Shown here piece after piece: positions 7,588 through 48,637 of a stretch of 64,000 bases of DNA. Position 1 is the first letter of the stretch, and the number at the start of each line of letters is the position of its first letter. The DNA is from Patescibacteria group bacterium. Lineage in GTDB: Bacteria; Patescibacteriota; Minisyncoccia; Phycocordibacterales; JAACPR01. The DNA is taken from the NCBI GenBank assembly GCA_022711495.1, contig JAKLEX010000001.1:225389-289388 (forward strand). The letters are read 5' to 3'. The notes under the pieces are model-generated. The model ran no database searches, had not been told where the DNA came from, and saw nothing but the letters and a program-made list of their open reading frames with translations. Both the position numbers and the translations under genes were made by a program.

Positions 7588-7677
7588 ATCTGAAGTCGCT
7601 GGACTCTTAACGATACGGGGCCCGTGCTTTTGTGTTAAAATAATGGCAGTTGGAATTTATAAAGTTAATTTATTTCT

Positions 7678-9036
7678 ATGAACCGTTTTTATAAATTTGG
7701 CTTGATGTTCGTGTTGGCCGCGGCTCTGTTTTTTTCTGCCGCCAGATCAGTCCAAGCCTTGACAATGTGTAGTTTCACTCGAGATTTAACTGTTGGATCA
7801 AGTGGTGAAGATGTTCGCTGTCTGCAGCAATATCTGAATGCGGTTGGTTACACGATTGCTAACACGGGCGCTGGTTCGCTAGGCCAAGAGACAACTTATT
7901 TTGGAAATCTAACGGCACAAGCCGTGGCCAAATGGCAAGCAGGCAACGACATATCGCCGACGGCTGGATATTTTGGCACAATCTCTCGTGCCAGATACGC
8001 GGAGATTTTCCAAAGAGCGAATGATCCGGCCGGAGCCGACGCGCGGGCGGCTATAGCCGAGGCTTCTTCTTATATCGCTGAGGCACGTCGAGCCTTTAAT
8101 CAAGCGGATGGAGATGGGGCCGACCGAACAGAAGATATAATCAAGGCGACGTTTAGTGACTTATCTATTGCTTCCGATTTTTATCAAGATGGTGAATATA
8201 ACAAAGCCGAGGACTCTGCCTTAAGGGCTGTTAGAGGAGCCAAGTATGCTCTCGGGGCTTTAGATGACTCCAAAGATTATGAAGATAATAGGAGCGGGGC
8301 CAAAGAGGTTATTCAGAACACTGAAGACGCAATTAAAGACGCCGAAGATGCTATTGAAGATGCTGAAGAGGCCACAGATGAGTCTGAAGCAGACGATTAT
8401 GACATAGACGGGGCAAAAGATATTTTGGAAGAAGCCCAAGATCTATTGGAAGAATCTCAAGATCTATTAAACGAAGCCGAAGAAGCTTTTGACGATAGGG
8501 ATTATGATGAGGCGATTGACTCGGCCGAAGATGCACTAGCCTTAGCGACAGACGCTCAAGAAATTGCAGAAGATGCCGCAGATATTGCTGACGGGGATAT
8601 TGAATACGAAGACTATGATTCGGATTTTATGGTCCATGATAGTGATGATGACGACGAAAATGCCGTTGATCAAAACGACGAAGATGACGAAGATGATGAT
8701 GAGGACGACGATTCCGCCACGACAGACGATCAAATAACCGGACAGGCAACCTCAACAGTGGATACGTATAATAAAATAGTTCCAACACTGGTTCAAACTT
8801 ATGGCGGTAGTGGCGTGAGCCAAAGTAGCACCGCTAGTGAAAGCGGCACACAAAGTGGCATTGACGCGGGAAGTTCTAGTAATGACTCTGATGAGACAGA
8901 AGAAACTCCAGAGGAAGAGGCCGCTCAAATAAATGACTCCATAATTTATTCTGGTAATTCTGCCGGCGATTGGTATAACAACGGCATCCTTAATCCTGGG
9001 GGCTGTTCTGCGGGGGAATGTTCGTGGGGGACATAA
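7678..9036 (+). CDS. Secreted peptidoglycan-binding-domain protein with polyacidic repeat region (family member 1)
   Basis: Signal peptide. CSFTRDLTVGSSGEDVRCLQQYLNAVGY...YFG...AVAKWQ matches the PG_binding_1 pattern. Long D/E/A-rich repeats (FDDRDYDEAIDSAEDA etc.). Confidence 0.7.
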   Translation: MNRFYKFGLMFVLAAALFFSAARSVQALTMCSFTRDLTVGSSGEDVRCLQQYLNAVGYTIANTGAGSLGQETTYFGNLTAQAVAKWQAGNDISPTAGYFGTISRARYAEIFQRANDPAGADARAAIAEASSYIAEARRAFNQADGDGADRTEDIIKATFSDLSIASDFYQDGEYNKAEDSALRAVRGAKYALGALDDSKDYEDNRSGAKEVIQNTEDAIKDAEDAIEDAEEATDESEADDYDIDGAKDILEEAQDLLEESQDLLNEAEEAFDDRDYDEAIDSAEDALALATDAQEIAEDAADIADGDIEYEDYDSDFMVHDSDDDDENAVDQNDEDDEDDDEDDDSATTDDQITGQATSTVDTYNKIVPTLVQTYGGSGVSQSSTASESGTQSGIDAGSSSNDSDETEETPEEEAAQINDSIIYSGNSAGDWYNNGILNPGGCSAGECSWGT

Positions 9037-9109
9037 TTTTCTCTATTCTTATCTGCATGTTAAAATAATCATGCTTATCAGAAGCATTATTGGTTAATTT
9101 ATTTCAATT

Positions 9110-10315
9110 ATGAATAATCAAAGAAAAATAGTTTGGTTACTGACATTATTAGTTCTGCTTGTTGTTGGTGCGAATATTGCCGAAGCCGCCACGACTTGTA
9201 CTTTTACAAGAGACCTGGCTTTAGGTGATAACGGCGAAGACGTTCGTTGCTTGCAACAGTATTTAAATAGTGCCGGCTACACAATCGCAGCATCGGGCGT
9301 CGGTTCGCCTGGAAACGAAACAAGCTTGTTTAGAACTTTGACGGAGCAAGCGGTGATTAGGTGGCAAACAGCCAACGGTATTTCACCGGCTTCCGGATAC
9401 TTTGGTCCAAAGTCACAAGCAAAATATAATGCACTAATTTCTGGATCAAGTTCTGGCTCAAGTTCCAGCTCATCCGGCAGCTCGTCATCCAGTTCTTCCA
9501 GTAGCTCGTCCGGTTCATCCAGCTCCAGCTCTTCGTCAAGTAGCTCATCAGCTAACTCGGAGAGAAGCGAGGCCGAAGATACAATCTTAGAGGCTGTAGA
9601 CGCCATTTATGATGCCGAAGGGCAAATAGAAGATAGCGATGAAGATGAAGACGATATTGAGGATGCCGAAGAGATGTTAAAAGATGCTCGTGAAAATCTT
9701 TATAATGCCATTGAGGCGTATTTTGACGAAGATTACGATGATGCCATAGATTCAGCCGACGACGCCATTTCAGACGCCGAAGATGCTTATGAACAAGCCG
9801 GCGGGGAATCAGAAGAGGACGAAGCCGAGCAAGCCATTGACGACGCCGAGGACGCCTTAGACGCCGCCGAAGCCGAAATTGAGGAAGCGGACGACGATGG
9901 TGAGGAAGTCGGCGAGGCCGAAGATCTTTTTGACGAAGCTCAAGACTTGTTAGACGAAGCTGAAGAGGCTTTTGATGATGAGGATTATGACGAGGCTATT
10001 GATTTAGCCGAAGAGGCCGAAGATACGGCGGACGAAGCCGTCGACGCTATCGGTGAAGAAGGCGACGATGAAGAATCAGACGCCGAAGAAGCTATTGAAG
10101 ACGCCGAAGATGCCATTGATGCCGCCGAAGAGGCCATTGATGAATCAGACGCGGATGCTGATGACATAGAGGAGGCCGAAGATCTTGTTGACGAGGCTAA
10201 CGATTTGCTAGACGAAGCCGAAGAAGCCTTTGACGACGAAGATTACGACGATGCCATTGACGCTGCTGAAGAAGCTCAAGAAAAAGCCGAAGAAGCCGAA
10301 GATTTGGTTGATTAG
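9110..10315 (+). CDS. Secreted peptidoglycan-binding-domain protein with poly-Ser tract and polyacidic repeats (family member 2)
   Basis: Same N-domain (CTFTRDLALGDNGEDVRCLQQYLNSAGY). Poly-Ser run of about 35 aa. Repeated acidic modules EEAEDLxDEAxDLLDEAEEAFDDEDYDEAID. Confidence 0.7.
   Translation: MNNQRKIVWLLTLLVLLVVGANIAEAATTCTFTRDLALGDNGEDVRCLQQYLNSAGYTIAASGVGSPGNETSLFRTLTEQAVIRWQTANGISPASGYFGPKSQAKYNALISGSSSGSSSSSSGSSSSSSSSSSSGSSSSSSSSSSSSANSERSEAEDTILEAVDAIYDAEGQIEDSDEDEDDIEDAEEMLKDARENLYNAIEAYFDEDYDDAIDSADDAISDAEDAYEQAGGESEEDEAEQAIDDAEDALDAAEAEIEEADDDGEEVGEAEDLFDEAQDLLDEAEEAFDDEDYDEAIDLAEEAEDTADEAVDAIGEEGDDEESDAEEAIEDAEDAIDAAEEAIDESDADADDIEEAEDLVDEANDLLDEAEEAFDDEDYDDAIDAAEEAQEKAEEAEDLVD
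9443..9552 (+). repeat. Poly-serine coding simple-sequence tract (AGY/TCN codon repeats)
   Basis: About 110 nt encoding SSGSSSSSSGSSSSSSSSSSSGSSSSSSSSSSSS. Confidence 0.8.
10061..10315 (+). repeat. 255-bp direct repeat copy 1 (3' end of paralog CDS), ~99% identical to 13128-13382
   Basis: Base-by-base comparison shows only 2 mismatches over 255 nt, including the stop codon. Confidence 0.9.
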
Positions 10316-10352
10316 TCTCGGCGAGTTTCTCTAAGCATTATTGGTTTAATAA

Positions 10353-10386
10353 AACCACCAGAAAATATGGTGGTTTTATTTTTTTA
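10353..10386 (+). terminator. Rho-independent terminator
   Basis: AACCACCA-gaaaata-TGGTGGTT hairpin followed by a T-run. Confidence 0.6.
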
Positions 10387-10448
10387 TCGGAATCTGTCTA
10401 TGTTATACTGTGTGTTAGTTAAAAACACATTAACTTAATTTAATCTTT

Positions 10449-13382
10449 ATGAAATATCTTAGAAAATTAATCCAGGCGTCTGTATTATTAGTATTTTTTG
10501 TCTCTAATATTCGTGTTGAGGCAGTATCGATTTGTACTTTTACCAGAGATCTGACAGTCGGATCGGTCGGCGAAGACGTGCGCTGCTTGCAACAATATTT
10601 AAATAGCACCGGTTACACCATTACCGAATCAAATGAGGGCTCACTAGGACAAGAGACCACATATTTTGGAACTTTAACCGCGCAAGCTTTAGCAAGATGG
10701 CAGTCAAACAACGGAGTATCGCCGGCCACCGGATATTTCGGTCCAGTTTCAAGAGCGAAATATAGCTCCTTCACTTCCGGAGTCTCTAATGGCGCCGGAG
10801 GAACTGTGAGCGGACAAAGAGAAGCCGCCTCTTCTATAAATGAGGCCGTTTATACCATAAGCGAAGTTTATGATAAGGTCAGAAATTCAAAAAATAGCAA
10901 AGCTGTAGGACTCTGGGAAGATGCCGACGAATTGTTGGATGATGCGGAGGCAGCTTATAACAAAAAGCAATATGATCTAGCTTTAGATTTTGCGGAGGCG
11001 GCAATCGAAAAAGCCGATGAGGCAGAATCGGCTCTTAGTAGTAAGACTGCTTCAACTAGCGAAGCTAAATCTGAAGCCAGAGACGCTATCGCAGACGCTG
11101 AAAAAGCCATTGACGACGCCAAAGATGAGATTGACGAAGCTGATGACGATGGCGATGACGTTGATGAAGCTGAAAGTATCTTAGACGACGCCAGGGAAGC
11201 TTTAAATGACGCCGAGGAAGCCTACGACGATAAAGATTATGATGAAGCGATAGAATTGGCTGAAGAGGCTCAAGATGCGGCAGACGAGGCCGTTGATGCT
11301 ATCGGCGAAGAACCTGAAGATGACGATGATGAAGATGATGAAGATGATGAACAGATCTCGGTTAAACTTCTGGCTAACGGAAAGTCTGGAACGGTTAAAA
11401 CCAATTCAGACAGTGTCGCACTAACATGGACGTCTAATGCTAAATATTGCGAAGCTTCGTCGTCATATTCCGCCGCCGGCAGCTCATCTAGTTTGGCAAA
11501 TAAGACAATAAGCATCTTGCCAATCGGTGATTCCAATACTGCTGGAGTGGGCAATCCAACCAACTGCACGAAAAATTGCCTTGGTTATAGGAAAAGCTTA
11601 AAAGATCTTCTAACCGCGGCCAATATAAAGACCGACTTTGTTGGTTCAAAATCTGACGGTAATTTCACCGACAATCAACACGAGGGCTGGTCTGGCGAAG
11701 GTATTTCTAAAATTCAAAGCCGAATATCTGGCGGCATTCTTGGAACTCTCAAACCAGATATCGCCCTGCTTCTTATTGGAAGCAATGACATGTGGATTTC
11801 TCTTTCTGATCGTAGCCCGGTCTCTGATAACAAGGCTAACTACTGGGTATCGCAACTTGGAAAATTGCTAGATGCTATGTATGGCAAAAAAAGTGACATG
11901 CATGTTATTGTCGCCAAACCGGCGACACCTAGGAGCGCCTCTGGACCTCTGGCCATTTATCGCGATGGTATTGATACTTTGGTTAAACAGAAAAAAACCG
12001 ATGGACAAAAAATCTCCTCAGTTGATTTGATGGGAGCGAAAAATGATGGCACCCATTATACCTCTACCGGTTTTGAGACTGTGGCCAATTTGTGGGCCGC
12101 TGAAATCAAGAGCATTGTTTCCGGTAGTTCTGCGATATATACCGCGCCAAGTTGGTCGGGCCAGAAGAGTGCAAAGGGCAGTAAATCTTTTTCTTTAGCT
12201 CCGGGCTCGGAAACGACTTTCAGTTTAAGGTGCGGGGATTCTTCCTCGTCTTTGACGGCTAGGAGTAATGTTACTGTTAAAGTCAGCTCAAGCGCCAGTT
12301 CATCGTCCGGCGGCGACTCCGGTGATGACGCCGTTGACCTTTATGAAGGCATGATTGAACAGTTGGTTGAGACCATGGGTGAAGGATTTGATGAAGTTGG
12401 TATACCGCAACCTTTTGCTTGTCCTTTGAAGACTGAATCTGATGATGACCGACTAGTTAATTTCTCTACAGTTAAGGGATTGCTTGGTAAATCTTCCGGA
12501 AGTACTCCTGCTGGATTCTCGTCCAATGGTCAAGCGGACTACCAAGTAAGTATTCCTGCCGGCACGTATAAAGTGTCCATGACAACCTATGACAATCACT
12601 CGGAACACGGCGGTCAGGGCCAGCGCAATGAGAAAGTCTATCTTGAGTTATATGATGGTGCCGATGGAGACATGATTGCGAAGACCGACTCTACGGATGA
12701 TATTTCAGAAAGTTCTAATAGTGTTACCACGATCATCGCTGACGCTTTGGAAGTAGACAGTCAAGTCAAAATGTTAAGAACTATTCACGCGGCGTATCCG
12801 AATGGTTCATCGGCCGAAAGCGTATTTCCAATCTGTACGTTGTTTGAAAGCACAGACGAAGACCCGGAGGATGACGAAGAAAAGGAGGCCGAAGACGCTG
12901 TTGATAGAGCCATAGAACTGATAGACGAAGCTAAAGACGCGATTGACGACTCCGACGCCTCGGACAGGAAAATTGAATTGGCTGAAGATATTATTGATGA
13001 CGCGGAAGATCTTGTTGACGATGCAACGGAGGCCATTGATGATGAGGATTATGACGAAGCGATAGAATTGGCCGAAGAGGCTCAAGATTTTGCTAAGGAG
13101 GCGGCCGATATCGTCGGTGAGAAAATCGGCGACGATGAAGAATCAGACGCCGAAGAAGCTATTGAAGACGCCGAAGATGCCATTGATGCCGCCGAAGAGG
13201 CCATTGATGAATCAGACGCGGATGCTGATGACATAGAGGAGGCCGAAGATCTTGTTGACGAGGCTAACGATTTGCTAGACGAAGCCGAAGAAGCCTTTGA
13301 CGACGAAGATTACGACGATGCCATTGACGCTGCTGAAGAAGCTCAAGAAAAAGCCGAAGAAGCGGAAGAGTTGGTTGATTAG
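10449..13382 (+). CDS. Large secreted protein: PG-binding domain + acidic repeats + SGNH/GDSL hydrolase domain + second acidic repeat array (family member 3)
   Basis: Signal peptide and CTFTRDLTVGSVGEDVRCLQQYLNSTGY. SGNH blocks GDSNTAG (block I), EGWSG (II), GSNDMW (III), DGTHYT (V). Acidic modules on both sides. Confidence 0.7.
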   Translation: MKYLRKLIQASVLLVFFVSNIRVEAVSICTFTRDLTVGSVGEDVRCLQQYLNSTGYTITESNEGSLGQETTYFGTLTAQALARWQSNNGVSPATGYFGPVSRAKYSSFTSGVSNGAGGTVSGQREAASSINEAVYTISEVYDKVRNSKNSKAVGLWEDADELLDDAEAAYNKKQYDLALDFAEAAIEKADEAESALSSKTASTSEAKSEARDAIADAEKAIDDAKDEIDEADDDGDDVDEAESILDDAREALNDAEEAYDDKDYDEAIELAEEAQDAADEAVDAIGEEPEDDDDEDDEDDEQISVKLLANGKSGTVKTNSDSVALTWTSNAKYCEASSSYSAAGSSSSLANKTISILPIGDSNTAGVGNPTNCTKNCLGYRKSLKDLLTAANIKTDFVGSKSDGNFTDNQHEGWSGEGISKIQSRISGGILGTLKPDIALLLIGSNDMWISLSDRSPVSDNKANYWVSQLGKLLDAMYGKKSDMHVIVAKPATPRSASGPLAIYRDGIDTLVKQKKTDGQKISSVDLMGAKNDGTHYTSTGFETVANLWAAEIKSIVSGSSAIYTAPSWSGQKSAKGSKSFSLAPGSETTFSLRCGDSSSSLTARSNVTVKVSSSASSSSGGDSGDDAVDLYEGMIEQLVETMGEGFDEVGIPQPFACPLKTESDDDRLVNFSTVKGLLGKSSGSTPAGFSSNGQADYQVSIPAGTYKVSMTTYDNHSEHGGQGQRNEKVYLELYDGADGDMIAKTDSTDDISESSNSVTTIIADALEVDSQVKMLRTIHAAYPNGSSAESVFPICTLFESTDEDPEDDEEKEAEDAVDRAIELIDEAKDAIDDSDASDRKIELAEDIIDDAEDLVDDATEAIDDEDYDEAIELAEEAQDFAKEAADIVGEKIGDDEESDAEEAIEDAEDAIDAAEEAIDESDADADDIEEAEDLVDEANDLLDEAEEAFDDEDYDDAIDAAEEAQEKAEEAEELVD
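13128..13382 (+). repeat. 255-bp direct repeat copy 2
   Basis: See 10061-10315. Confidence 0.9.
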
Positions 13383-13443: not shown

Positions 13444-14358
13444 TTACCGTCTAACAAAACTGCGGACAATCTTAAATAAAATCCAGATAAGAAACGCAAT
13501 AACCAAATACAACAAGATTTTATATTCCAAAATTCCGTAAAGGGTCTTGAAGAGATAGAGTTGCCCAGTCTTCAAAAATATTTGTCTTGATAACATTCGT
13601 CCTTCGGCTGGAGCGGACAATTCCGCTCGTCCCTCAACAATCGTCTGTTTAATAGCTTCGTTGCGAGCCTTTAGGTCCGCAAGCTCTTCTTCCAGAGCGA
13701 GAATTTTGCCTTCAATTTTGTCGCTCAAAGAATCGGCGCCGGTGTTGATACTTTGGAGGGCACTGTCGGCGGTTTCTTTGATGGTACTGACGACTTGTCC
13801 TCCGATATCGTTCTCATCATCTTCTTTCGTATCTCGGTTATCCTCATCGTCCTCTTCATCGCCGATACCGTCATCGTCGGAGTCATAATCAACAAAAATT
13901 TCTTCCGATTCTATGATGTTGTTTTTTATTTCTACGTCGCTTCGCCAACCGCTAGAGGTATTTTTTTTGACATTAGTGAGTTTGGCGTAAATCTGATGAG
14001 TGCCGTATTCTGGAGCAAAATCAGCCCAGCCTTCAATAAGTCGGCCGTTGAGAGCGGAGAATTCTTTGGTCTCAATTCTCTTGCCGTTGTCATAGAATTC
14101 TATCTGACCGGTGATGTCATCGCCGGATTGATTTTGAAAAGCCACGTAAATACGAGCATTTTCATCGGCGAAAAGAGGAAATTTTGAATACCAAATTCCG
14201 CTGACAAAACCGGCGTTAGTCTTCACCGCGGATTCGGCCGCTTCAACTTTTTCTGCGGCCAAGACTTTTCCCACTATTAGAACCTTTTCCGCGTTGATTA
14301 ATAGAAGGGATAGACTTAATATTGCAAAAACACTGAAAAATTTAAAGTTTGTCATCAT
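13444..14358 (-). CDS. Secreted acidic coiled-coil protein with C-terminal TM anchor, hypothetical
   Basis: N-terminal signal peptide. D/E-rich segment. Coiled-coil segment (LALEEELADLKARNEAIKQ). C-terminal hydrophobic helix. Confidence 0.5.
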   Translation of the reverse strand: MMTNFKFFSVFAILSLSLLLINAEKVLIVGKVLAAEKVEAAESAVKTNAGFVSGIWYSKFPLFADENARIYVAFQNQSGDDITGQIEFYDNGKRIETKEFSALNGRLIEGWADFAPEYGTHQIYAKLTNVKKNTSSGWRSDVEIKNNIIESEEIFVDYDSDDDGIGDEEDDEDNRDTKEDDENDIGGQVVSTIKETADSALQSINTGADSLSDKIEGKILALEEELADLKARNEAIKQTIVEGRAELSAPAEGRMLSRQIFLKTGQLYLFKTLYGILEYKILLYLVIAFLIWILFKIVRSFVRR

Positions 14359-14821
14359 ATTTTTTTATCAACCATAACGTGATGCCGATTCCTAAAACTG
14401 CACCAGCTAAGATTTGTGTTAGCGTGTGAACTCTTAAGATTAGCCGGCTGGCGACTATGGCTAAAATGGCAAGTGTCAGAATCAAAGTTGCGGTGCTCTT
14501 GAATAAGCGGCTTTTGTTTGAACGCCAGATGTAGTTAGCTAAAAAAGTCAGAAGGAAAAAACCGATCGCGGTGTGTCCGCTCGGAAAAGCATAATCGTTC
14601 AGTCCAATTAGGGCGTCGGCCGGGCGCGATATTTTAGTGACGTCTTTTATTAGCAGAGTCAAAATTGAAGTGAGCAGGGTGGACAGGGCGAAAACTTTTA
14701 AGGCGGGGAATCTTTTCTTGGCCATCAGCCAAAGCGCGATGGCAAAAATAAACCCAAAGATGATTTCCCAACTGGAGATGAAATAGACGTAATATGAGGC
14801 CGTTACTAGAAGGGAATTCAT
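14342..14821 (-). CDS. PAP2-family phosphatase (undecaprenyl-diphosphatase-like)
   Basis: Motifs KxxxxxxRP (KDVTKISRP), PSGH, SRxxxxxHxxxQ. About 5 TM helices. Confidence 0.7.
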   Translation of the reverse strand: MNSLLVTASYYVYFISSWEIIFGFIFAIALWLMAKKRFPALKVFALSTLLTSILTLLIKDVTKISRPADALIGLNDYAFPSGHTAIGFFLLTFLANYIWRSNKSRLFKSTATLILTLAILAIVASRLILRVHTLTQILAGAVLGIGITLWLIKKYDDKL

Positions 14822-43037: not shown

Positions 43038-44546
43038 GTGATAGGCATTTTTTGTAAGAAGAATTTAAAGATTCTGTTTGTTGGCGCAGAGGCAGCTCCG
43101 TTTGTGAAAATCGGCGGATTGAGCTCTGTGATGAAATCTTTGCCGAAGGCCCTAAATGAGATTGGGCACGATGCTCGGGTTATGATCCCGAAATATCTTT
43201 CTATTGATACTGAAAAATATTTTTTGAAGATGGAACATGAAGGATTGGAGGTTCCAACGGGGAATTCCGCTGAACCGGACCACCTAGTTTGTAACGTCAG
43301 ACGTTGTGATCCAATTAAAGAGGAGGGAATCGTTACGACCTATTTTTTGGAAAATCAAGAATACTATGAAAAACGCGCTAACGTTTACGGCTATTCTGAC
43401 GATCCGGTTCGTTGGGCGCTACTCTGTCGTGGTGTCTTAGAATTTATTAAGAAGAATAGAAACTGGGTGCCGGATGTAATAGTTTGCGCCGACTGGCAAT
43501 CTGCTCTTATACCAAACTTTTTAAAGACAACTTATTCTAATATTCCGAAATTAACCAAAATAGCCACGGTCTTTTCAATTCACAATCTTTACTTCCAGGC
43601 CATGTATGACCATCGTTTCGTGTCGGAAATGGATTTTGATGACGGGCATTCGGAAATTCCGGGATTTGATAATCCGCGATTGACTAAAATTAATTGGATG
43701 AGAAGAGGTATTATGTACGCTGATGCCATAAATACCGTTTCGCCAACTTACGCCAAAGAAATTATGACCAAAAATTATGGTGAACTGCTTGACGAATTGC
43801 TTCGCGAACGCCGTTCGGTTCTTTCCGGAATTTTAAACGGAATTGATTATGATCTCTGGAATCCGGAAAAGAATCCGCATGTAGCCTTCCCTTATTATGC
43901 TAGAAACCTTTCGGCTCGGGCTAAAAATAAGGCCAGTTTACAAGGACAATTTAATCTGCCGATTAAAAAAGATGCTTTTATTATGGCGATTGTTTGCCGA
44001 TTTACAAAACAAAAAGGTCTTGACTTGTTAATGCCGATTTTGGACCTGATTTTGCAGGAGTTACCGGCGCAGTTAGTTATTGTCGGTGAAGGTGATTCGG
44101 AATATATGCACTTCTTCCATAATTTGGAAACAAAATATCCAGACAAAGTCGCGGTCCATTTGAAATTTGATAGTGTTTTGGCTCACAAAATTTTTGCTGG
44201 AGCTGATGTGGTTTTGGTCCCTTCAAAGTTTGAGCCTTGTGGTTTGGTTCAGCTGGAAGCCATGAGAATGGGCACCATCCCAATTGTTAGAAAGACGGGC
44301 GGGTTGGCGGATAGTGTTGAAGACTATAGTCCGGAAAAACAGACTGGTACCGGATTTGTTTTTGAAAAATTTGATTCATCATCGCTTATGATCGCCATTA
44401 TTAGAGCTTTTGAAAATTTCCGCGATAGGGAACGTTGGCAAGAATTACAAAAGCGCGCGATGTCAAAGGATTTTTCTTGGGAAAGTTCGGCAGAAAAATA
44501 TGTAAAATTGTTTTTGCAGGCGATCGCCATACATGGACCAAAATAA
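43038..44546 (+). CDS. glgA: Glycogen synthase (GT5, ADP/UDP-glucose type)
   Basis: KIGGLSSVMKSLPKAL N-terminal motif. About 500 aa. Confidence 0.85.
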   Translation: MIGIFCKKNLKILFVGAEAAPFVKIGGLSSVMKSLPKALNEIGHDARVMIPKYLSIDTEKYFLKMEHEGLEVPTGNSAEPDHLVCNVRRCDPIKEEGIVTTYFLENQEYYEKRANVYGYSDDPVRWALLCRGVLEFIKKNRNWVPDVIVCADWQSALIPNFLKTTYSNIPKLTKIATVFSIHNLYFQAMYDHRFVSEMDFDDGHSEIPGFDNPRLTKINWMRRGIMYADAINTVSPTYAKEIMTKNYGELLDELLRERRSVLSGILNGIDYDLWNPEKNPHVAFPYYARNLSARAKNKASLQGQFNLPIKKDAFIMAIVCRFTKQKGLDLLMPILDLILQELPAQLVIVGEGDSEYMHFFHNLETKYPDKVAVHLKFDSVLAHKIFAGADVVLVPSKFEPCGLVQLEAMRMGTIPIVRKTGGLADSVEDYSPEKQTGTGFVFEKFDSSSLMIAIIRAFENFRDRERWQELQKRAMSKDFSWESSAEKYVKLFLQAIAIHGPK

Positions 44547-44564
44547 TTTTTCTGAGAGATTTAT

Positions 44565-46061
44565 ATGAAATGGGCCAATTTTTTACACTTTTACCAACCG
44601 GCGCAACAACAGGCAGATATTTTAGAGGCCGTTGCGACTCAGTGCTATCGTCCGGTTATCACGAGCATTTTCAATAATCCCAAGGCGAGGATGACTATCA
44701 ACATCAACGGCTCTCTCTTGGAGTTGTTTGATAAATATGGCTATCAAGACTTAATCAAAATGTTGCGCGAACTGGGCGAACGAGGACAGGTAGAATTTGT
44801 TAGTTCGGCCAAATATCATGCTTTTTTACCCCTTCTAGGTAAAGAAGAAATCTTAAGACAAATTAAAATTAATGATCAAACAAACGCTCATTACTTAGGG
44901 GAAAAAGCTTATCGTCCCAAAGGCTTCTTTTCACCAGAGATGGGTTATTCCAAACATGTCGCGGAAGTAGTTGAAGAAGCCGGTTTTGAGTGGATGATCT
45001 TGGACGAAATAACCGCCACGGGAAAGGTGGGCGCCGTTGACTATTCCAAGACTTATAAAATCCAAGGGACAAAGTTAAAAGCTTTCTATCGAGAGAGACG
45101 TCTAAGTAACGCCATTATGAGTGCCGTGGTTAGAAACACAGATTCTTTGGCCGAGGCCATGGCTAATGAACTGGCCGGGGATAAATATGTTCTAACCGGA
45201 ATGGACGGAGAAACCTTTGGCCATCACCGCCCGGGGCTAGAAAAACTTCTTGAGAATGTTTATAAAGATAATCGTTTTGAACTGGTGACGATTTCTGAAC
45301 TTCCAGATTTATATCCGGAGGTTGTTGAAACTGAACCGGTGCCATCAACCTGGGCCAGCAGCCAAGACGATATTGATCGTCACATTCAATTTTTATCCTG
45401 GAAAGATCCAGAAAATCCAATACACGCGTGGCAGTGGGAATTGTTTAATCTGGTAAATAAAACGGTTAGGTCAACTAAAGTGCCCGAAAATGATAGGGAA
45501 CTGATTTGGAGAAAAATGGATATTGCCACCGCGAGTGATCATTTCTGGTGGGCTTCGGCTAAACCGTGGTGGAGTCTGGAAATGATTGAGGCCGGCGCGT
45601 TCATGCTACTTGACGTGATGAGGAGCGTCCCAAAGATTTCTCAAAAACTTGTAAAGAAAGCCGAAGATCTATACTTAAAAATTATTTCAACCGCCTGTGA
45701 TTGGCAGAGAACGGGAAAAGTTCGAACCATGGCTAAAGCTCAACGGACGATAACTCGCATTCCGTTCAAAGATCGAACCGTTGGCCGAGGAGGCGCCGAA
45801 GAGGGCGTTTATCATGCGTTTATCAAAATGATGCGCGATTTGGAGCAAAAAGCCGTGCAGAATCACGAGTATGAAAAAGCCATCCTTTGGAGAGACGCCG
45901 TTTTTAAATTAGAAAACAAGCTTGATATTTATGAGGCCATAAATATTATTGATCTTGTTAGACTTGAAATTCCGTACGAAGAAATAGAAAAAACTATTGA
46001 TAAATATAAAGATGAGTACCGACGAATTCGCGGAGGTCAGCCGGAACAGAGGGGCGCGTAG
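44565..46061 (+). CDS. Glycoside hydrolase family 57 (alpha-amylase/branching-enzyme type)
   Basis: N-terminal LHFYQP and GMDGETFGHH motifs characteristic of GH57. Confidence 0.7.
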   Translation: MKWANFLHFYQPAQQQADILEAVATQCYRPVITSIFNNPKARMTININGSLLELFDKYGYQDLIKMLRELGERGQVEFVSSAKYHAFLPLLGKEEILRQIKINDQTNAHYLGEKAYRPKGFFSPEMGYSKHVAEVVEEAGFEWMILDEITATGKVGAVDYSKTYKIQGTKLKAFYRERRLSNAIMSAVVRNTDSLAEAMANELAGDKYVLTGMDGETFGHHRPGLEKLLENVYKDNRFELVTISELPDLYPEVVETEPVPSTWASSQDDIDRHIQFLSWKDPENPIHAWQWELFNLVNKTVRSTKVPENDRELIWRKMDIATASDHFWWASAKPWWSLEMIEAGAFMLLDVMRSVPKISQKLVKKAEDLYLKIISTACDWQRTGKVRTMAKAQRTITRIPFKDRTVGRGGAEEGVYHAFIKMMRDLEQKAVQNHEYEKAILWRDAVFKLENKLDIYEAINIIDLVRLEIPYEEIEKTIDKYKDEYRRIRGGQPEQRGA

Positions 46062-46760: not shown

Positions 46761-48563
46761 TTAGTAGGTTGTTGTTGAATCTTTAACTAGCTCCCAAGCT
46801 CCTCCTGGCCCAATCCACATCCAGTGGTATCCGACTGGGTGATTTGGATATTTTCTCTCCATTCTTTCACAGCTCTTCATACCATAGAGATGTGAATGGC
46901 TAGGAATTACATCTCCCCATGAATACTGGGTTGGTCTAACTACGCCTTCCTTTGCAGGATAATCAGTTCCGCCGGCAGGGTTTCTTATGCCTGGGCAGAT
47001 CTTGTATTGTATTTGCTGACCGTTATATGTTGTATAACCAATTTCTCCACTTGCATCAGTATTTTGCATGTAGTAACCAGGAATCGTAGATATACCACTT
47101 TGACCCATAGTTGCCACTAACTCTTCTACTGATTGATTATATGCGCCAACCGCTCCTTGAGTGAAGTTTTGAGAGAATTGAAGCAGACAGTCATTGACGG
47201 TGCTTCCTTTTTCCCAACAATCTCGCCAACAATCACAGTTAATTCTGCCGGCATCACAAACGCCATTTGTTGAGTGGGTCATGGTGTAACCAGCCTCTGG
47301 AAAAGCCTTGTGAATACATATATCATTTACGACATGTTGTCTTGCCCCATCTATAAATAAGTAGTTTGTCGTCGTTGCTGGAGTAGTTGATGCGGTAGAA
47401 GAGCCAATATTCTCAACGACCTCAATAGCCTCTTCTGCCAATCCTTCCGCTTCTACGGCATAGTCAAGAGCATCGTCGTAATCTTCATCGTCAAACTCTT
47501 CTTCAGCCGTATCCAGTTGTTCTTTTGCTGAATCTACCAAGCCGTTTGCTTCGTCAATGGCCTCTTCCGCCCCATCTTTAACATCGTCGTATTCGCCATC
47601 CTCAAAATCTTGCTCGGCTTCTTCTACGACACCTTCTGCCTCTTCGATGGCGTCTTCGGCGTCGTTAATAGCCTCTTCGGCGTCATTTTCATCGGCATCA
47701 ACTTCTTCAGCTAAATCTTCCGCTTCCTCGGCCTTTTTTTGAGCTTCTTCTGCCGAATCAATGGCCTCATCATAATCCTCATCATCAACAGACTCTTCAG
47801 CATCCTCTAACAAATCTTTAGCTTCATCGACAAGCTCCTCGGCATCTTCAATATCGTTATCATCAGCATCCGATACGTCTATAGCATCTTCAGCGTCATC
47901 TATAGCATCTTCAGCGTCTTTAATTGCTTCTTCTGCACCGTCTTCGTCTTCGTCGTAAGAAGCTTTTGATTTTTTCTTTAACGCGTCTTCAGCCTCTTCT
48001 GCCTTTTCCACGGCATCAACTCCAAGTGTTAGGGCTTTGTTATATTGACCTTTGTTATAAGCATCCTCCGCGTCGTCCAGTATTTTCTCGGCGGCTTCCC
48101 ATAATTTTGTGGCAGAACTATTCTTTGCTTTTTTAACTTTATCGTAAACTTCACTTACGGTATAGATTGCCTCGTTTATGGAAGAGGCGGCCTCTCTTTG
48201 CTGGCCCTCCACGCCACCGACATTGCCGGGATTTCCGGTAACCAATGTATTATATTTCGCGATAGACTTTGCTCCGAAATAGCCCGCAGCTGGAGTGACT
48301 CCATTGGCCGCTTGCCATCTCTGAACTGCACCCTGGGTTGCGTTACCGAAAAAGATTGTTTCATTTCCAGCTGAACCAACGCCAGATTGCGCCACCTTGT
48401 AACTGGTGCTGTTTAAGTACTGCTGCAGACATCGCACGTCTTCACCGCTTACTCCTAGATTTAGGTCTCGGGTGAAAGAACAAGCCGCATCAGCCCTGCT
48501 GATTCCGACAAAAAGCAGAACCAACACAGGCAACAACCAGCTCATTTTTCTTAAATAATTCAT
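46761..48563 (-). CDS. Secreted PG-binding-domain protein with polyacidic repeats and Cys-rich C-terminal domain (family member 4)
   Basis: Signal peptide. CSFTRDLNLGVSGEDVRCLQQYLNSTSY. Conserved REAASSINEA...YNKGQY linker shared with the 10449 gene. Acidic modules. About 200-aa C-terminal domain with 10 Cys. Confidence 0.7.
   Translation of the reverse strand: MNYLRKMSWLLPVLVLLFVGISRADAACSFTRDLNLGVSGEDVRCLQQYLNSTSYKVAQSGVGSAGNETIFFGNATQGAVQRWQAANGVTPAAGYFGAKSIAKYNTLVTGNPGNVGGVEGQQREAASSINEAIYTVSEVYDKVKKAKNSSATKLWEAAEKILDDAEDAYNKGQYNKALTLGVDAVEKAEEAEDALKKKSKASYDEDEDGAEEAIKDAEDAIDDAEDAIDVSDADDNDIEDAEELVDEAKDLLEDAEESVDDEDYDEAIDSAEEAQKKAEEAEDLAEEVDADENDAEEAINDAEDAIEEAEGVVEEAEQDFEDGEYDDVKDGAEEAIDEANGLVDSAKEQLDTAEEEFDDEDYDDALDYAVEAEGLAEEAIEVVENIGSSTASTTPATTTNYLFIDGARQHVVNDICIHKAFPEAGYTMTHSTNGVCDAGRINCDCWRDCWEKGSTVNDCLLQFSQNFTQGAVGAYNQSVEELVATMGQSGISTIPGYYMQNTDASGEIGYTTYNGQQIQYKICPGIRNPAGGTDYPAKEGVVRPTQYSWGDVIPSHSHLYGMKSCERMERKYPNHPVGYHWMWIGPGGAWELVKDSTTTY
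47878..47919 (-). repeat. Perfect 2x21-nt tandem duplication inside acidic repeat coding region
   Basis: TCTATAGCATCTTCAGCGTC[A/T] twice, encoding DAEDAID twice. Confidence 0.8.
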
Positions 48564-48637
48564 AAATAAAATTAAACTAATAATTTGATAATTACGGGTG
48601 AATTATACCACAAAGCGCTGTTCTTTGAGGGGGTGGG

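Follow-up and report, generated by a model that had tools for sequence, protein, structure and literature searches.

Gene content and organization of the locus

The 64,000 nt stretch of a Patescibacteria group bacterium examined here (contig JAKLEX010000001.1; hereafter the window) was found to carry four genes for putatively secreted proteins that combine a peptidoglycan-binding type domain with strings of acidic modules. Three of these (A, B and C) are located on the forward strand and one (D) on the reverse strand. They are best explained as paralogous members of one family of secreted proteins from Patescibacteria (Parcubacteria/Paceibacteria-type) that dock non-covalently to the cell wall, with the anatomical part of this account, as opposed to the functional part, being considered highly probable. 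Open reading frame (ORF) calls confirmed the coordinates given for the four genes in a preliminary description of this DNA:

7678-9036, forward strand: gene A, 452 aa, net charge -83
9110-10315, forward strand: gene B, 401 aa, net charge -122
10449-13382, forward strand: gene C, 977 aa, net charge -144
46761-48563, reverse strand: gene D, 600 aa, net charge -88

The product of gene B consists of a signal peptide, an N-domain, a Ser-rich linker and three modules, the protein terminating with the last module. That of A possesses a signal peptide (aa 1-27), a disulfide-type N-domain, two modules and an acidic/Ser-Thr tail, which is of low complexity, disordered-looking and ends in GGCSAGECSWGT. 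All four proteins had previously been described as an N-domain followed by repeats, a description that is incomplete for C and D. The former was found to comprise a signal peptide, the N-domain, two modules, a 519-aa insert bearing an SGNH domain and two further modules, and the latter a signal peptide, the N-domain, three modules and a 216-aa Cys-rich C-terminal domain. As more than 120 clusters (90% identity) share the architecture of B, ending at the last module (median 406 aa, D+E 0.28, K+R 0.07, two to four modules), B can be regarded as the canonical form of the family, with A, C and D as local derivatives.

Signal peptide, N-domain and putative wall anchoring

A signal peptide with n-, h- and c-regions (K/R, a 12-aa hydropathy peak of 2.6-3.2 and A/V-x-A, respectively) was identified in all four proteins, with a Cys following at aa 28-31. 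This anatomy fits the secretion that had been proposed and is typical of the Sec/SPase-I type, which would place the mature N-terminus 0-4 residues ahead of the invariant Cys. The N-domains were located as follows:

7768-8007, forward strand: N-domain of A (aa 31-110), PG_binding_1, carrying the Cys pair specific to the family
9197-9439, forward strand: N-domain of B (aa 30-110), PG_binding_1, with C30 and C47 invariant among 69 aligned sequences
10533-10778, forward strand: N-domain of C (aa 29-110), PG_binding_1
48240-48482, reverse strand: N-domain of D (aa 28-108), PG_binding_1

That the four share this domain behind the signal peptide, as claimed in the preliminary description, was borne out by one literal match per protein (4/4) to the motif C-[ST]-F-T-R-D-L-x-[LV]-G-x-x-G-E-D-V-R-C-L-Q-Q-Y-L-N-x-x-[GS]-Y. 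Of the ending described for it, GYFG is present in each protein, but A-[KI]-Y is absent from A, which reads ARY. Pairwise, the N-domains of A-D are identical at 48-57 of 85 positions (tblastn E 1e-31 to 1e-35). Their suggested PG_binding_1 type was likewise upheld by Pfam (PF01471), with scores of 35.6 (A), 42.1 (B), 36.2 (C) and 27.7 (D) bits against a cut-off of 23, and PG_binding_1 matched 69/69 aligned family members (best E 5e-15). The fold of the N-domain superposes on the peptidoglycan-binding domain of SleB at 1.5 Å. Most family members contain exactly two Cys residues, and C30 and C47 are probably linked by a disulfide, which would fasten the N-terminal strand to helix 1.

The N-domain is alike in sequence and fold to the PG_binding_1 domains of SleB, CtpB, Zn D,D-peptidase, L,D-transpeptidases and phage endolysins. 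In those proteins it delivers an enzyme, whereas the canonical member here delivers acidic helical bundles only; the invariant Cys pair is an addition of the Patescibacteria family relative to SleB-type proteins. The same type of N-domain was also observed in four very large proteins of 1,390-4,210 aa (P0200, P0209, P0231 and P0238), near the C-terminus in three of them, and the Cys-stapled variant would therefore appear to be reused for the docking of giant surface proteins.

Lipoprotein anchoring of A-D was rejected, as no lipobox can be recognised in the residues at -3 to -1 before the Cys (TTC, SIC, TMC, and AAC preceded by D). Sortase anchoring was also rejected, since B, C and most homologues finish exactly at the last acidic module and no LPXTG is present. 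No membrane anchor was found in the family proteins.

The acidic modules

A six-frame scan of the window with a hidden Markov model (HMM) of the module identified twelve acidic modules (E 1e-22 to 1e-27), in A-D only, an occurrence judged to be far above chance. These modules, with the linker that precedes those of B, were as follows:

8011-8253, forward strand: module A1 (aa 112-192), net charge -5, by module HMM
8305-8568, forward strand: module A2 (aa 210-297), net charge -34, by module HMM
9440-9547, forward strand: Ser-rich flexible linker of B (aa 111-146), AlphaFold2 (AF2) pLDDT below 50 for aa 113-143
9548-9796, forward strand: module B1, net charge -32, predicted as three helices
9800-10051, forward strand: module B2, net charge -44, predicted as three helices
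10058-10312, forward strand: module B3, net charge -46, predicted as three helices
10812-11039, forward strand: module C1, net charge -10, by module HMM
11052-11306, forward strand: module C2, net charge -31, by module HMM
12864-13118, forward strand: module C3, net charge -33, by module HMM
13125-13379, forward strand: module C4, net charge -45, by module HMM
47412-48206, reverse strand: modules D1 (net charge -5), D2 (net charge -40) and D3 (net charge -44; 98 aa with a 13-aa insertion), by module HMM

These results alter the picture of very long arrays of a ~45-aa unit embedded in nearly pure D/E/A sequence. The repeat unit was found to be 255-261 nt in the DNA and ~85 aa (76-98 aa) in the protein, with a spacing of 86-98 aa between core motifs, and the arrays to be of two (A), three (B and D) or 2+2 (C) modules, accounting for 34-63% of each protein. 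D, E and A together make up 39-78% of a module, alongside a regular hydrophobic core, and true poly-D/E low-complexity runs were identified only as short linkers, of 12 residues in A (aa 334) and C (aa 290). The core motif reported for the modules is present in exact form in four of the twelve (B2, B3, C2 and C4) and in a loose form in eight. Net negative charge rises from the wall-proximal to the distal end in 4/4 family proteins of the window, with the proximal modules A1, C1 and D1 being mildly acidic (net -5 to -10) and the distal ones carrying net charges of -31 to -46 each, with 42-55% D+E. The 21-nt periodicities detected with Tandem Repeats Finder (78-86% matches across two to three copies) reflect heptads. 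Phase variation by slippage was rejected, as no perfect tandem repeats prone to it are present, these 21-nt periods being imperfect heptads.

The AF2 model of B shows three helices per module (pLDDT 89.7, pTM 0.52), arranged as antiparallel three-helix bundles joined by linkers of 3-5 residues; the low pTM combined with the high pLDDT fits rigid domains of uncertain mutual orientation. The earlier guess of a TPR-like helical hairpin was close to the predicted three-helix bundle. In an alignment of 69 sequences (37-53% identity to B), at least 80% of the sequences have Ala, Leu or Ile at the core columns, spaced 3-4 residues apart, of the module 2 and module 3 helices, and at least 50-80% have D or E at nearly all exposed columns of these two modules. 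Invariant or near-invariant module columns are nearly all Ala or Leu, with one Asp, apart from which no specific polar residue was found to be conserved in the modules of this alignment. Because core columns and acidity are conserved column by column, these data argue for an acidic part made of folded three-helix bundles, with an Ala/Leu/Ile core at heptad-like positions, rather than a disordered polyanion. The same column-by-column conservation of acidity, with no other specific polar residue kept, is the main argument that bulk charge, and not a pocket, would be the property under selection.

Relationship of the module to DUF4398 and other families

Whole-protein searches with DUF4398 (PF14346) returned 39.6 bits for B, 41.7 for C and 29.7 for D against a cut-off of 27.9, with no match in A, and the family was matched in 62/69 aligned members at E<=0.001 (best 7e-16). 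Taken singly, the modules of the window remain below this cut-off (B3 being the best with 25.3 bits, and C1, A1 and B1 scoring 11-14 bits, in register), and D1 alone gave no DUF4398 match in the Pfam scan. In structure, the module superposes at 1.6 Å on the DUF4398 crystal structure 4fm3 (Pseudomonas aeruginosa PA2901). The sequence match to DUF4398 is best described as borderline. Searches of PDB sequences with module or family profiles did not recover 4fm3 and were dominated by de novo designed helical repeats, which reflect idealised helix composition and not homology, and no match at E<=0.001 was found with Foldseek against the PDB.

DUF4398 is typically found as a small, single-domain, lipoprotein-type envelope protein (PA2901 being 13 kDa), although this is not a strict requirement, and it also occurs joined to OmpA-like domains. 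To our knowledge, DUF4398 itself has no established function. The single-domain lipoprotein form was not found here, where two to four tandem modules lie behind PG_binding_1 and there is no lipobox. Nonetheless, the DUF4398 proteins PA2901 and Leptospira LipL71/LruA appear to be the closest relatives in sequence and fold, with the Pfam match in B, C and D. Their envelope location is suggested by annotation, with LipL71 recorded as a peptidoglycan-binding lipoprotein of the LysM type and PA2901 appearing in an extracellular-vesicle proteome table. In LipL71, DUF4398 is joined to a LysM peptidoglycan-binding domain (PMC5406399), so that both families would couple it to such a domain, LysM there and PG_binding_1 here. 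The modules of the present family differ from PA2901 and LipL71 in being tandem (2-4), hyper-acidic, from a monoderm-type phylum and not part of lipoproteins.

Several other assignments were rejected. The HEPN family (PF05168) scored 23.0 bits in C and 26.7 in D against a cut-off of 22, but over profile positions 1-38 of ~117 only (one hairpin). The catalytic R-x(4-6)-H of HEPN is present in no module, its sole match (D, aa 570) lying outside them. The name 'HEPN domain-containing protein', given automatically to some homologues by the Joint Genome Institute (JGI), and 'chromosome segregation ATPase', another automatic name in use, are very likely to be mis-annotations. EF-hand or DxDxDG loops were also dismissed, with no EF-hand family in the Pfam scans and the consensus loop 'ADDDGxDV' being one residue out of register; this loop is lost in B3, C3, C4 and D2, and replaced by 'SDADADDI' and similar sequences in B3, C4 and D2. 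No NCBIfam model came near its cut-off, with matches to SMC, Rad50, PgrA and others being compositional, and a scan of the whole window against Rfam returned no family match.

Distribution and genomic neighbourhood of the family

The preliminary description held that nothing like these proteins belongs to a standard annotated system. Besides the borderline match of the module to DUF4398, for which a crystal structure exists, public records do name them as peptidoglycan-binding proteins, the NCBI name for A and C being 'MAG TPA: peptidoglycan-binding protein [Candidatus Paceibacterota bacterium]'; NCBI taxonomy places Paceibacterota within the phylum Minisyncoccota. A full-text literature search (DUF4398; acidic peptidoglycan-binding proteins of Patescibacteria) found no paper describing the family. 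A JGI metagenome contig of 552,797 bp (3300010429) carries B residue for residue, together with A and C.

Nor was the suggestion of a lineage-specific module supported. An exhaustive profile search yielded 910 clusters (50% identity) at E<=1e-30, with members typically of ~400 aa, and 10,607 at E<=1e-10, the weaker matches of which will include other PG_binding_1 proteins as well as acidic helical ones, and the number of modules across the family ranges from one to four. When species-representative genomes were searched with one strict peptide pattern, 235 places matched and 80 loci were kept. All of these (80/80) belong to Patescibacteria-type metagenome-assembled genomes (MAGs), in line with the distribution that had been guessed at, with titles that include Paceibacterota/Paceibacteria, Parcubacteria, Kaiser-, Nomura-, Wolfe- and Vogelbacteria and Minisyncoccia; many were bulk-submitted as 'uncultured Candidatus Saccharibacteria', a label that was not verified. 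The gene is single-copy within ±6 kb in 76/80 loci, and the four-copy expansion appears particular to this genome, as do the added domains.

A second architecture was observed in P0097-P0119 (e.g. P0099 and P0113), consisting of a signal peptide, a helix of the type 'M-D-x-I-I-A-E-M-Q-x-L', a Cys-free variant of PG_binding_1 and one or two modules, with an acidic beta-looking region in P0113 and sometimes a further tail of ~130-150 aa. As it reuses the same modules, the acidic bundle would be a mobile module among the envelope proteins of this phylum.

Comparison of 82 loci revealed no conserved neighbourhood, the best neighbour family occurring at 10/82; the family can for this reason be taken as a stand-alone gene and not a multi-gene system. 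In the window the neighbours are unrelated housekeeping genes, among them those for LysRS, a PAP2 phosphatase, a histidine kinase, starch synthase/GH57 and an MFS transporter. The PAP2-superfamily phosphatase gene (63.5 bits; 14342-14821, reverse strand) lies close to the array, and a homologous gene was found at most 6 kb from a family gene in 6/82 loci, a weak association that may be coincidental. Convergent to C, a gene on the reverse strand (13444-14358) encodes a 304-aa protein with an N-terminal signal/transmembrane segment, an acidic (DDxDD-rich) coiled-coil-like middle and a C-terminal transmembrane segment. The scans assigned it to no Pfam or NCBIfam family and found no module of the A-D type in it, and it may be another envelope protein. 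Immediately upstream of the gene D region (43038-46061, forward strand) are a starch/glycogen synthase (GT5, 226.8 bits) followed by GH57, which look like the glycogen-metabolism pair of a reduced genome.

Additional domains of A, C and D

The regions that distinguish A, C and D from the canonical form were as follows:

11514-12092, forward strand: SGNH/GDSL hydrolase domain of C (aa 356-548), PF13472 34.1 bits (cut-off 32.9) and PF00657 28.5 bits (cut-off 23.6)
46764-47411, reverse strand: Cys-rich C-terminal domain of D (aa 385-600), 216 aa
~8758-8817, forward strand: shared ~17-20-aa motif in A (aa ~361-380)
~12510-12566, forward strand: the same motif in C (aa ~688-706)
~47088-47150, reverse strand: the same motif in D (aa ~472-492)

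The catalytic blocks of the SGNH domain in C are complete (GDS at aa ~360, GSND at aa ~444 and DGTH at aa ~533), with the rest of the 519-aa insert being a Ser-rich/beta region. Three homologues only were found for this insert, and the closest of these (P0121, 827 aa, 51% identical) is a wall protein with SGNH and C-terminal PG_binding_1 domains and without acidic modules. This suggests that C arose by insertion of a wall-esterase cassette into the acidic chassis. For the C-terminal domain of D, a homologue search returned none, and its single-sequence AF2 model was unusable (pLDDT 34). A motif common to the extra regions of all three proteins, which otherwise show no relation to one another, V-x-x-Y-x-x-x-[VI]-[EP]-x-L-V-x-T-[MY]-G-x-[SG]-G, is marginal (pairwise E 0.01-0.025). 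From the presence of cargo domains on the same chassis in C and D, namely the SGNH esterase and the Cys-rich domain, the chassis would also serve as a wall-targeting stalk.

Coding status, probable gene conversion and putative expression signals

The following features were identified at the DNA level:

10061-10315 and 13128-13382, forward strand: near-identical tract (module B3 = module C4), 253/255 nt identical
10348-10380, forward strand: terminator-like hairpin after gene B, with a 13-bp stem followed by a T-run
7640-7677, 9060-9109 and 10400-10448, forward strand, and 48564-48610, reverse strand: upstream regions of A, B, C and D with a shared element

The identity between B3 and C4 begins at the module boundary and ends just past the stop codon, with distinct flanks on both sides. 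The remaining module pairs are 60-74% identical in DNA and display many synonymous-only codon differences; between B3 and D2, for instance, 33 codons differ synonymously only and 24 change the amino acid. Given this difference in identity, the tract indicates recent gene conversion or duplication between the tandem paralogues, apparently on a background of purifying selection.

The same data bear on whether the modules could be an artefact, either low-complexity, GA-rich DNA that is not coding or a repeat that was collapsed or misassembled. Such an origin might be suspected from the 255-nt pair, which is 99% identical at a distance of 3 kb, and from the spurious frames that GA-rich repeats leave open on the opposite strand. 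Yet the protein is conserved across hundreds of clusters and many species genomes, codons vary in the synonymous-rich pattern seen between B3 and D2, the fold is predicted with confidence by AF2, an identical protein B is present on five public contigs, and the distinct flanks of B3 and C4 are consistent with a single linear path. An untranslated or misassembled repeat is thus ruled out for practical purposes by the conservation of the family and its codon differences, its probability being negligible; of the two findings that the preliminary description said would speak against its own reading of these proteins, a missing PG_binding match and untranslated or misassembled repeats, neither was made. 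Antisense ORFs with Ser/Leu-rich translations overlap the acidic repeats on the reverse strand (9277-9606, 11270-11569 and 12785-13085), and are by-products of stop-free, GA-rich codon repeats, not genes.

The terminator-like hairpin that follows B suggests that B and C are transcribed separately. A-D have no Shine-Dalgarno sequence, and share a 'GTTAATTTATTT'-like element 6-17 nt 5' of the ATG. TTAATTT was found at most 30 nt upstream of 4/51 ORF starts in the window, these being exactly A-D, and TTAATT precedes 23% of 77 orthologues elsewhere in comparison with 5% of 650 other ORFs, an enrichment of about 4-fold. A role as part of a shared leader, or in translation or regulation, is possible for this element. 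About 40-45 nt upstream, the four genes have extended -10-like boxes, namely TGTTAAAAT, TGTTAAAAT, TGTTATACT and TGGTATAAT. In the window as a whole, a Shine-Dalgarno-like motif was observed at 6/51 ORF starts, and many starts are preceded by a TATAAT or TATACT box, with about 7-15 nt between its end and the ATG. The position of these boxes suggests that leaderless or very-short-leader mRNAs are common in this genome and its relatives.

Proposed function

It is proposed, tentatively and at somewhat short of an even chance, that the proteins are wall-docked strings of acidic helical bundles that act through bulk charge. The N-domain would hold the protein on peptidoglycan non-covalently, and the bundles, at roughly 4-4.5 nm each, would be aligned end to end to give a short rod, as a three-helix bundle has its termini on opposite ends and the linkers are short. 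Repelled by the anionic wall and by neighbouring rods, such rods could together form a protein polyanion layer, which may bind and retain Mg2+/Ca2+ and other cations and set wall charge and spacing, acting through bulk negative charge and not through a specific binding pocket. In C and D the same layer would display the additional domains. The cation-sink, teichoic-acid-mimic, spacer and host-contact roles suggested in the preliminary description are likewise hypothetical.

In monoderm bacteria, teichoic acids are known to bind cations and to determine the charge of the wall. A further step, in which the protein polyanion takes the place of teichoic acids in the ultra-small, monoderm cells of Patescibacteria, whose biosynthetic capacity is minimal, serving as polyelectrolyte layer, cation reservoir and spacer, with the chassis being reused for wall- or host-directed enzymes, is conceivable though unlikely. 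Such a polymer would carry about one negative charge per two residues, and its folding would perhaps be Mg2+/Ca2+-dependent. Wall teichoic and lipoteichoic acids are functional analogues only. Both are wall-associated polyanions, but teichoic acids are polyol-phosphate polymers made by dedicated pathways and anchored covalently or by a lipid, whereas here the polyanion would be a ribosomally made protein, docked non-covalently, and the equivalence is put forward as a hypothesis by analogy. For Patescibacterium, one membrane plus a layer of murein have been inferred, with rhamnose polysaccharides suggested in place of teichoic acids (PMC11809585), a picture of the envelope that leaves room for the idea of a protein polyanion without demonstrating it.

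A number of points weigh against action through bulk charge. Peptidoglycan binding by the N-domain would follow from domain identity as its sole basis. AF2 is unable to judge the folding of a net -45 bundle without counter-ions, and the geometry between modules is uncertain (pTM 0.52), so that the proposed rod shape derives from topology alone. The family has no recognised cation-binding motif, with no EF-hand match and 'ADDDGxDV' being unlike DxDxDG. Those possible relatives that have been studied functionally point to protein-protein interaction (BB0323 binds BB0238), and an extremely acidic surface is also what would be expected of a specific binder of a basic partner.

The rival functional readings are not mutually exclusive. 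That the DUF4398-like bundles form a specific scaffold or adaptor, recruiting one or more basic partners to peptidoglycan (e.g. cationic wall hydrolases, S-layer or pilus components), is possible but doubtful. The combination of a helical domain with a peptidoglycan-binding domain does recur in envelope proteins, such as LipL71 (PMC5406399) and Borrelia BB0323, which has a helical N-terminal domain and LysM and binds its partner BB0238 through residues 22-200 (PMC5462797), and the weak HEPN-, TPR- and PMEI-like hairpin similarities of the module are typical of interaction modules. Treponema pallidum Arp (TP0433) has acidic repeats and a SPOR domain in the envelope, and its authors expect a positively charged ligand (PMC9531955). 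It is alike in joining acidic repeats to a peptidoglycan-binding domain in the cell envelope, but its SPOR anchor lies at the C-terminus, the models of its repeats are of low confidence (unstructured or beta) and it is not homologous to the family. No conserved neighbour gene was found that could encode a partner, however, and no non-acidic patch on the surface is conserved, what is kept outside the core being composition. Furthermore, one to four modules fits charge dosage better than a defined interface, and the Foldseek match to the BB0323 structure (6rjx) is weak (E 0.71, TM 0.37).

Contact with a host, the acidic rods of an episymbiont binding cationic features of host surfaces or of minerals and particles, with paralogues diversifying their targets through different C-terminal domains, is considered quite unlikely. 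In its favour are the four diverged copies here with lineage-specific cargo domains, the dependence on prokaryotic hosts described for Patescibacteria (PMC11809585), and the fold, shared with Fap1-NRalpha and trypanosome surface receptors. The staphylococcal adhesins Embp and Ebh are likewise surface- or wall-associated, with three-helix bundles strung one after another into elongated rods (PMC7587433), and the family profile weakly matches the structure 6gv8 (E 2e-5). These adhesins differ in their FIVAR/GA membership (absent here, FIVAR scoring 14 bits against 29.2), in being about 100-fold larger, and in having dipolar repeats, a membrane/wall-spanning region and fibronectin binding, whereas the present family is uniformly hyper-acidic with a PG_binding_1 anchor. 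The canonical member moreover ends at its last bundle, with no distal head or variable tip, the sequence is conserved over many lineages and not diversifying, most loci carry a single copy (76/80), and electrostatic binding to generally anionic cell surfaces would be unfavourable without bridging cations. Very unlikely is a protective decoy or shield, in which the wall polyanion would trap antimicrobial peptides of cationic type, basic enzymes similar to lysozyme or phage receptor-binding proteins on their way to the membrane or peptidoglycan. An extreme and conserved negative charge located on the wall would suit this role, and an elongated, acidic three-helix coat protein with no known ligand, the glutamic acid/alanine-rich GARP, is the major epimastigote surface protein of Trypanosoma congolense (PMC5268388). 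The likeness to GARP is convergent, not homologous, GARP being a eukaryotic protein with a GPI anchor that consists of one long bundle and a head. No defence-island context was found at the loci or in the window, and a decoy would also be an effect of bulk charge, overlapping with the function favoured above.

Significance for the Patescibacteria envelope

The four genes represent a real, well-conserved family of envelope proteins assembled from known parts (PG_binding_1 and a DUF4398-like bundle) that are already domain-annotated in public records. What is new is the recognition that the 'polyanion' consists of predicted folded three-helix bundles, hyper-acidic in a position-specific manner and graded in charge, the family's wide occurrence in Parcubacteria/Paceibacteria-type Patescibacteria, and the presence in this genome of four copies, an unusual expansion accompanied by cargo domains and by probable gene conversion. 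DUF4398 would gain a recurring context, with three different peptidoglycan-binding fusion partners if the OmpA-like case is counted, and a natural, confidently predicted three-helix bundle of about 50% Asp/Glu is of interest to protein design. The envelope of the Patescibacteria (Candidate Phyla Radiation, CPR) is almost uncharacterised, yet it mediates their host-dependent lifestyle. A large, conserved and easily recognised family with a wall-docking domain thus offers a handle for localisation, for proteomics of wall fractions and for questions of wall charge and cations and, if it does act through bulk charge, would be an example of a protein replacing the function of a glycopolymer.

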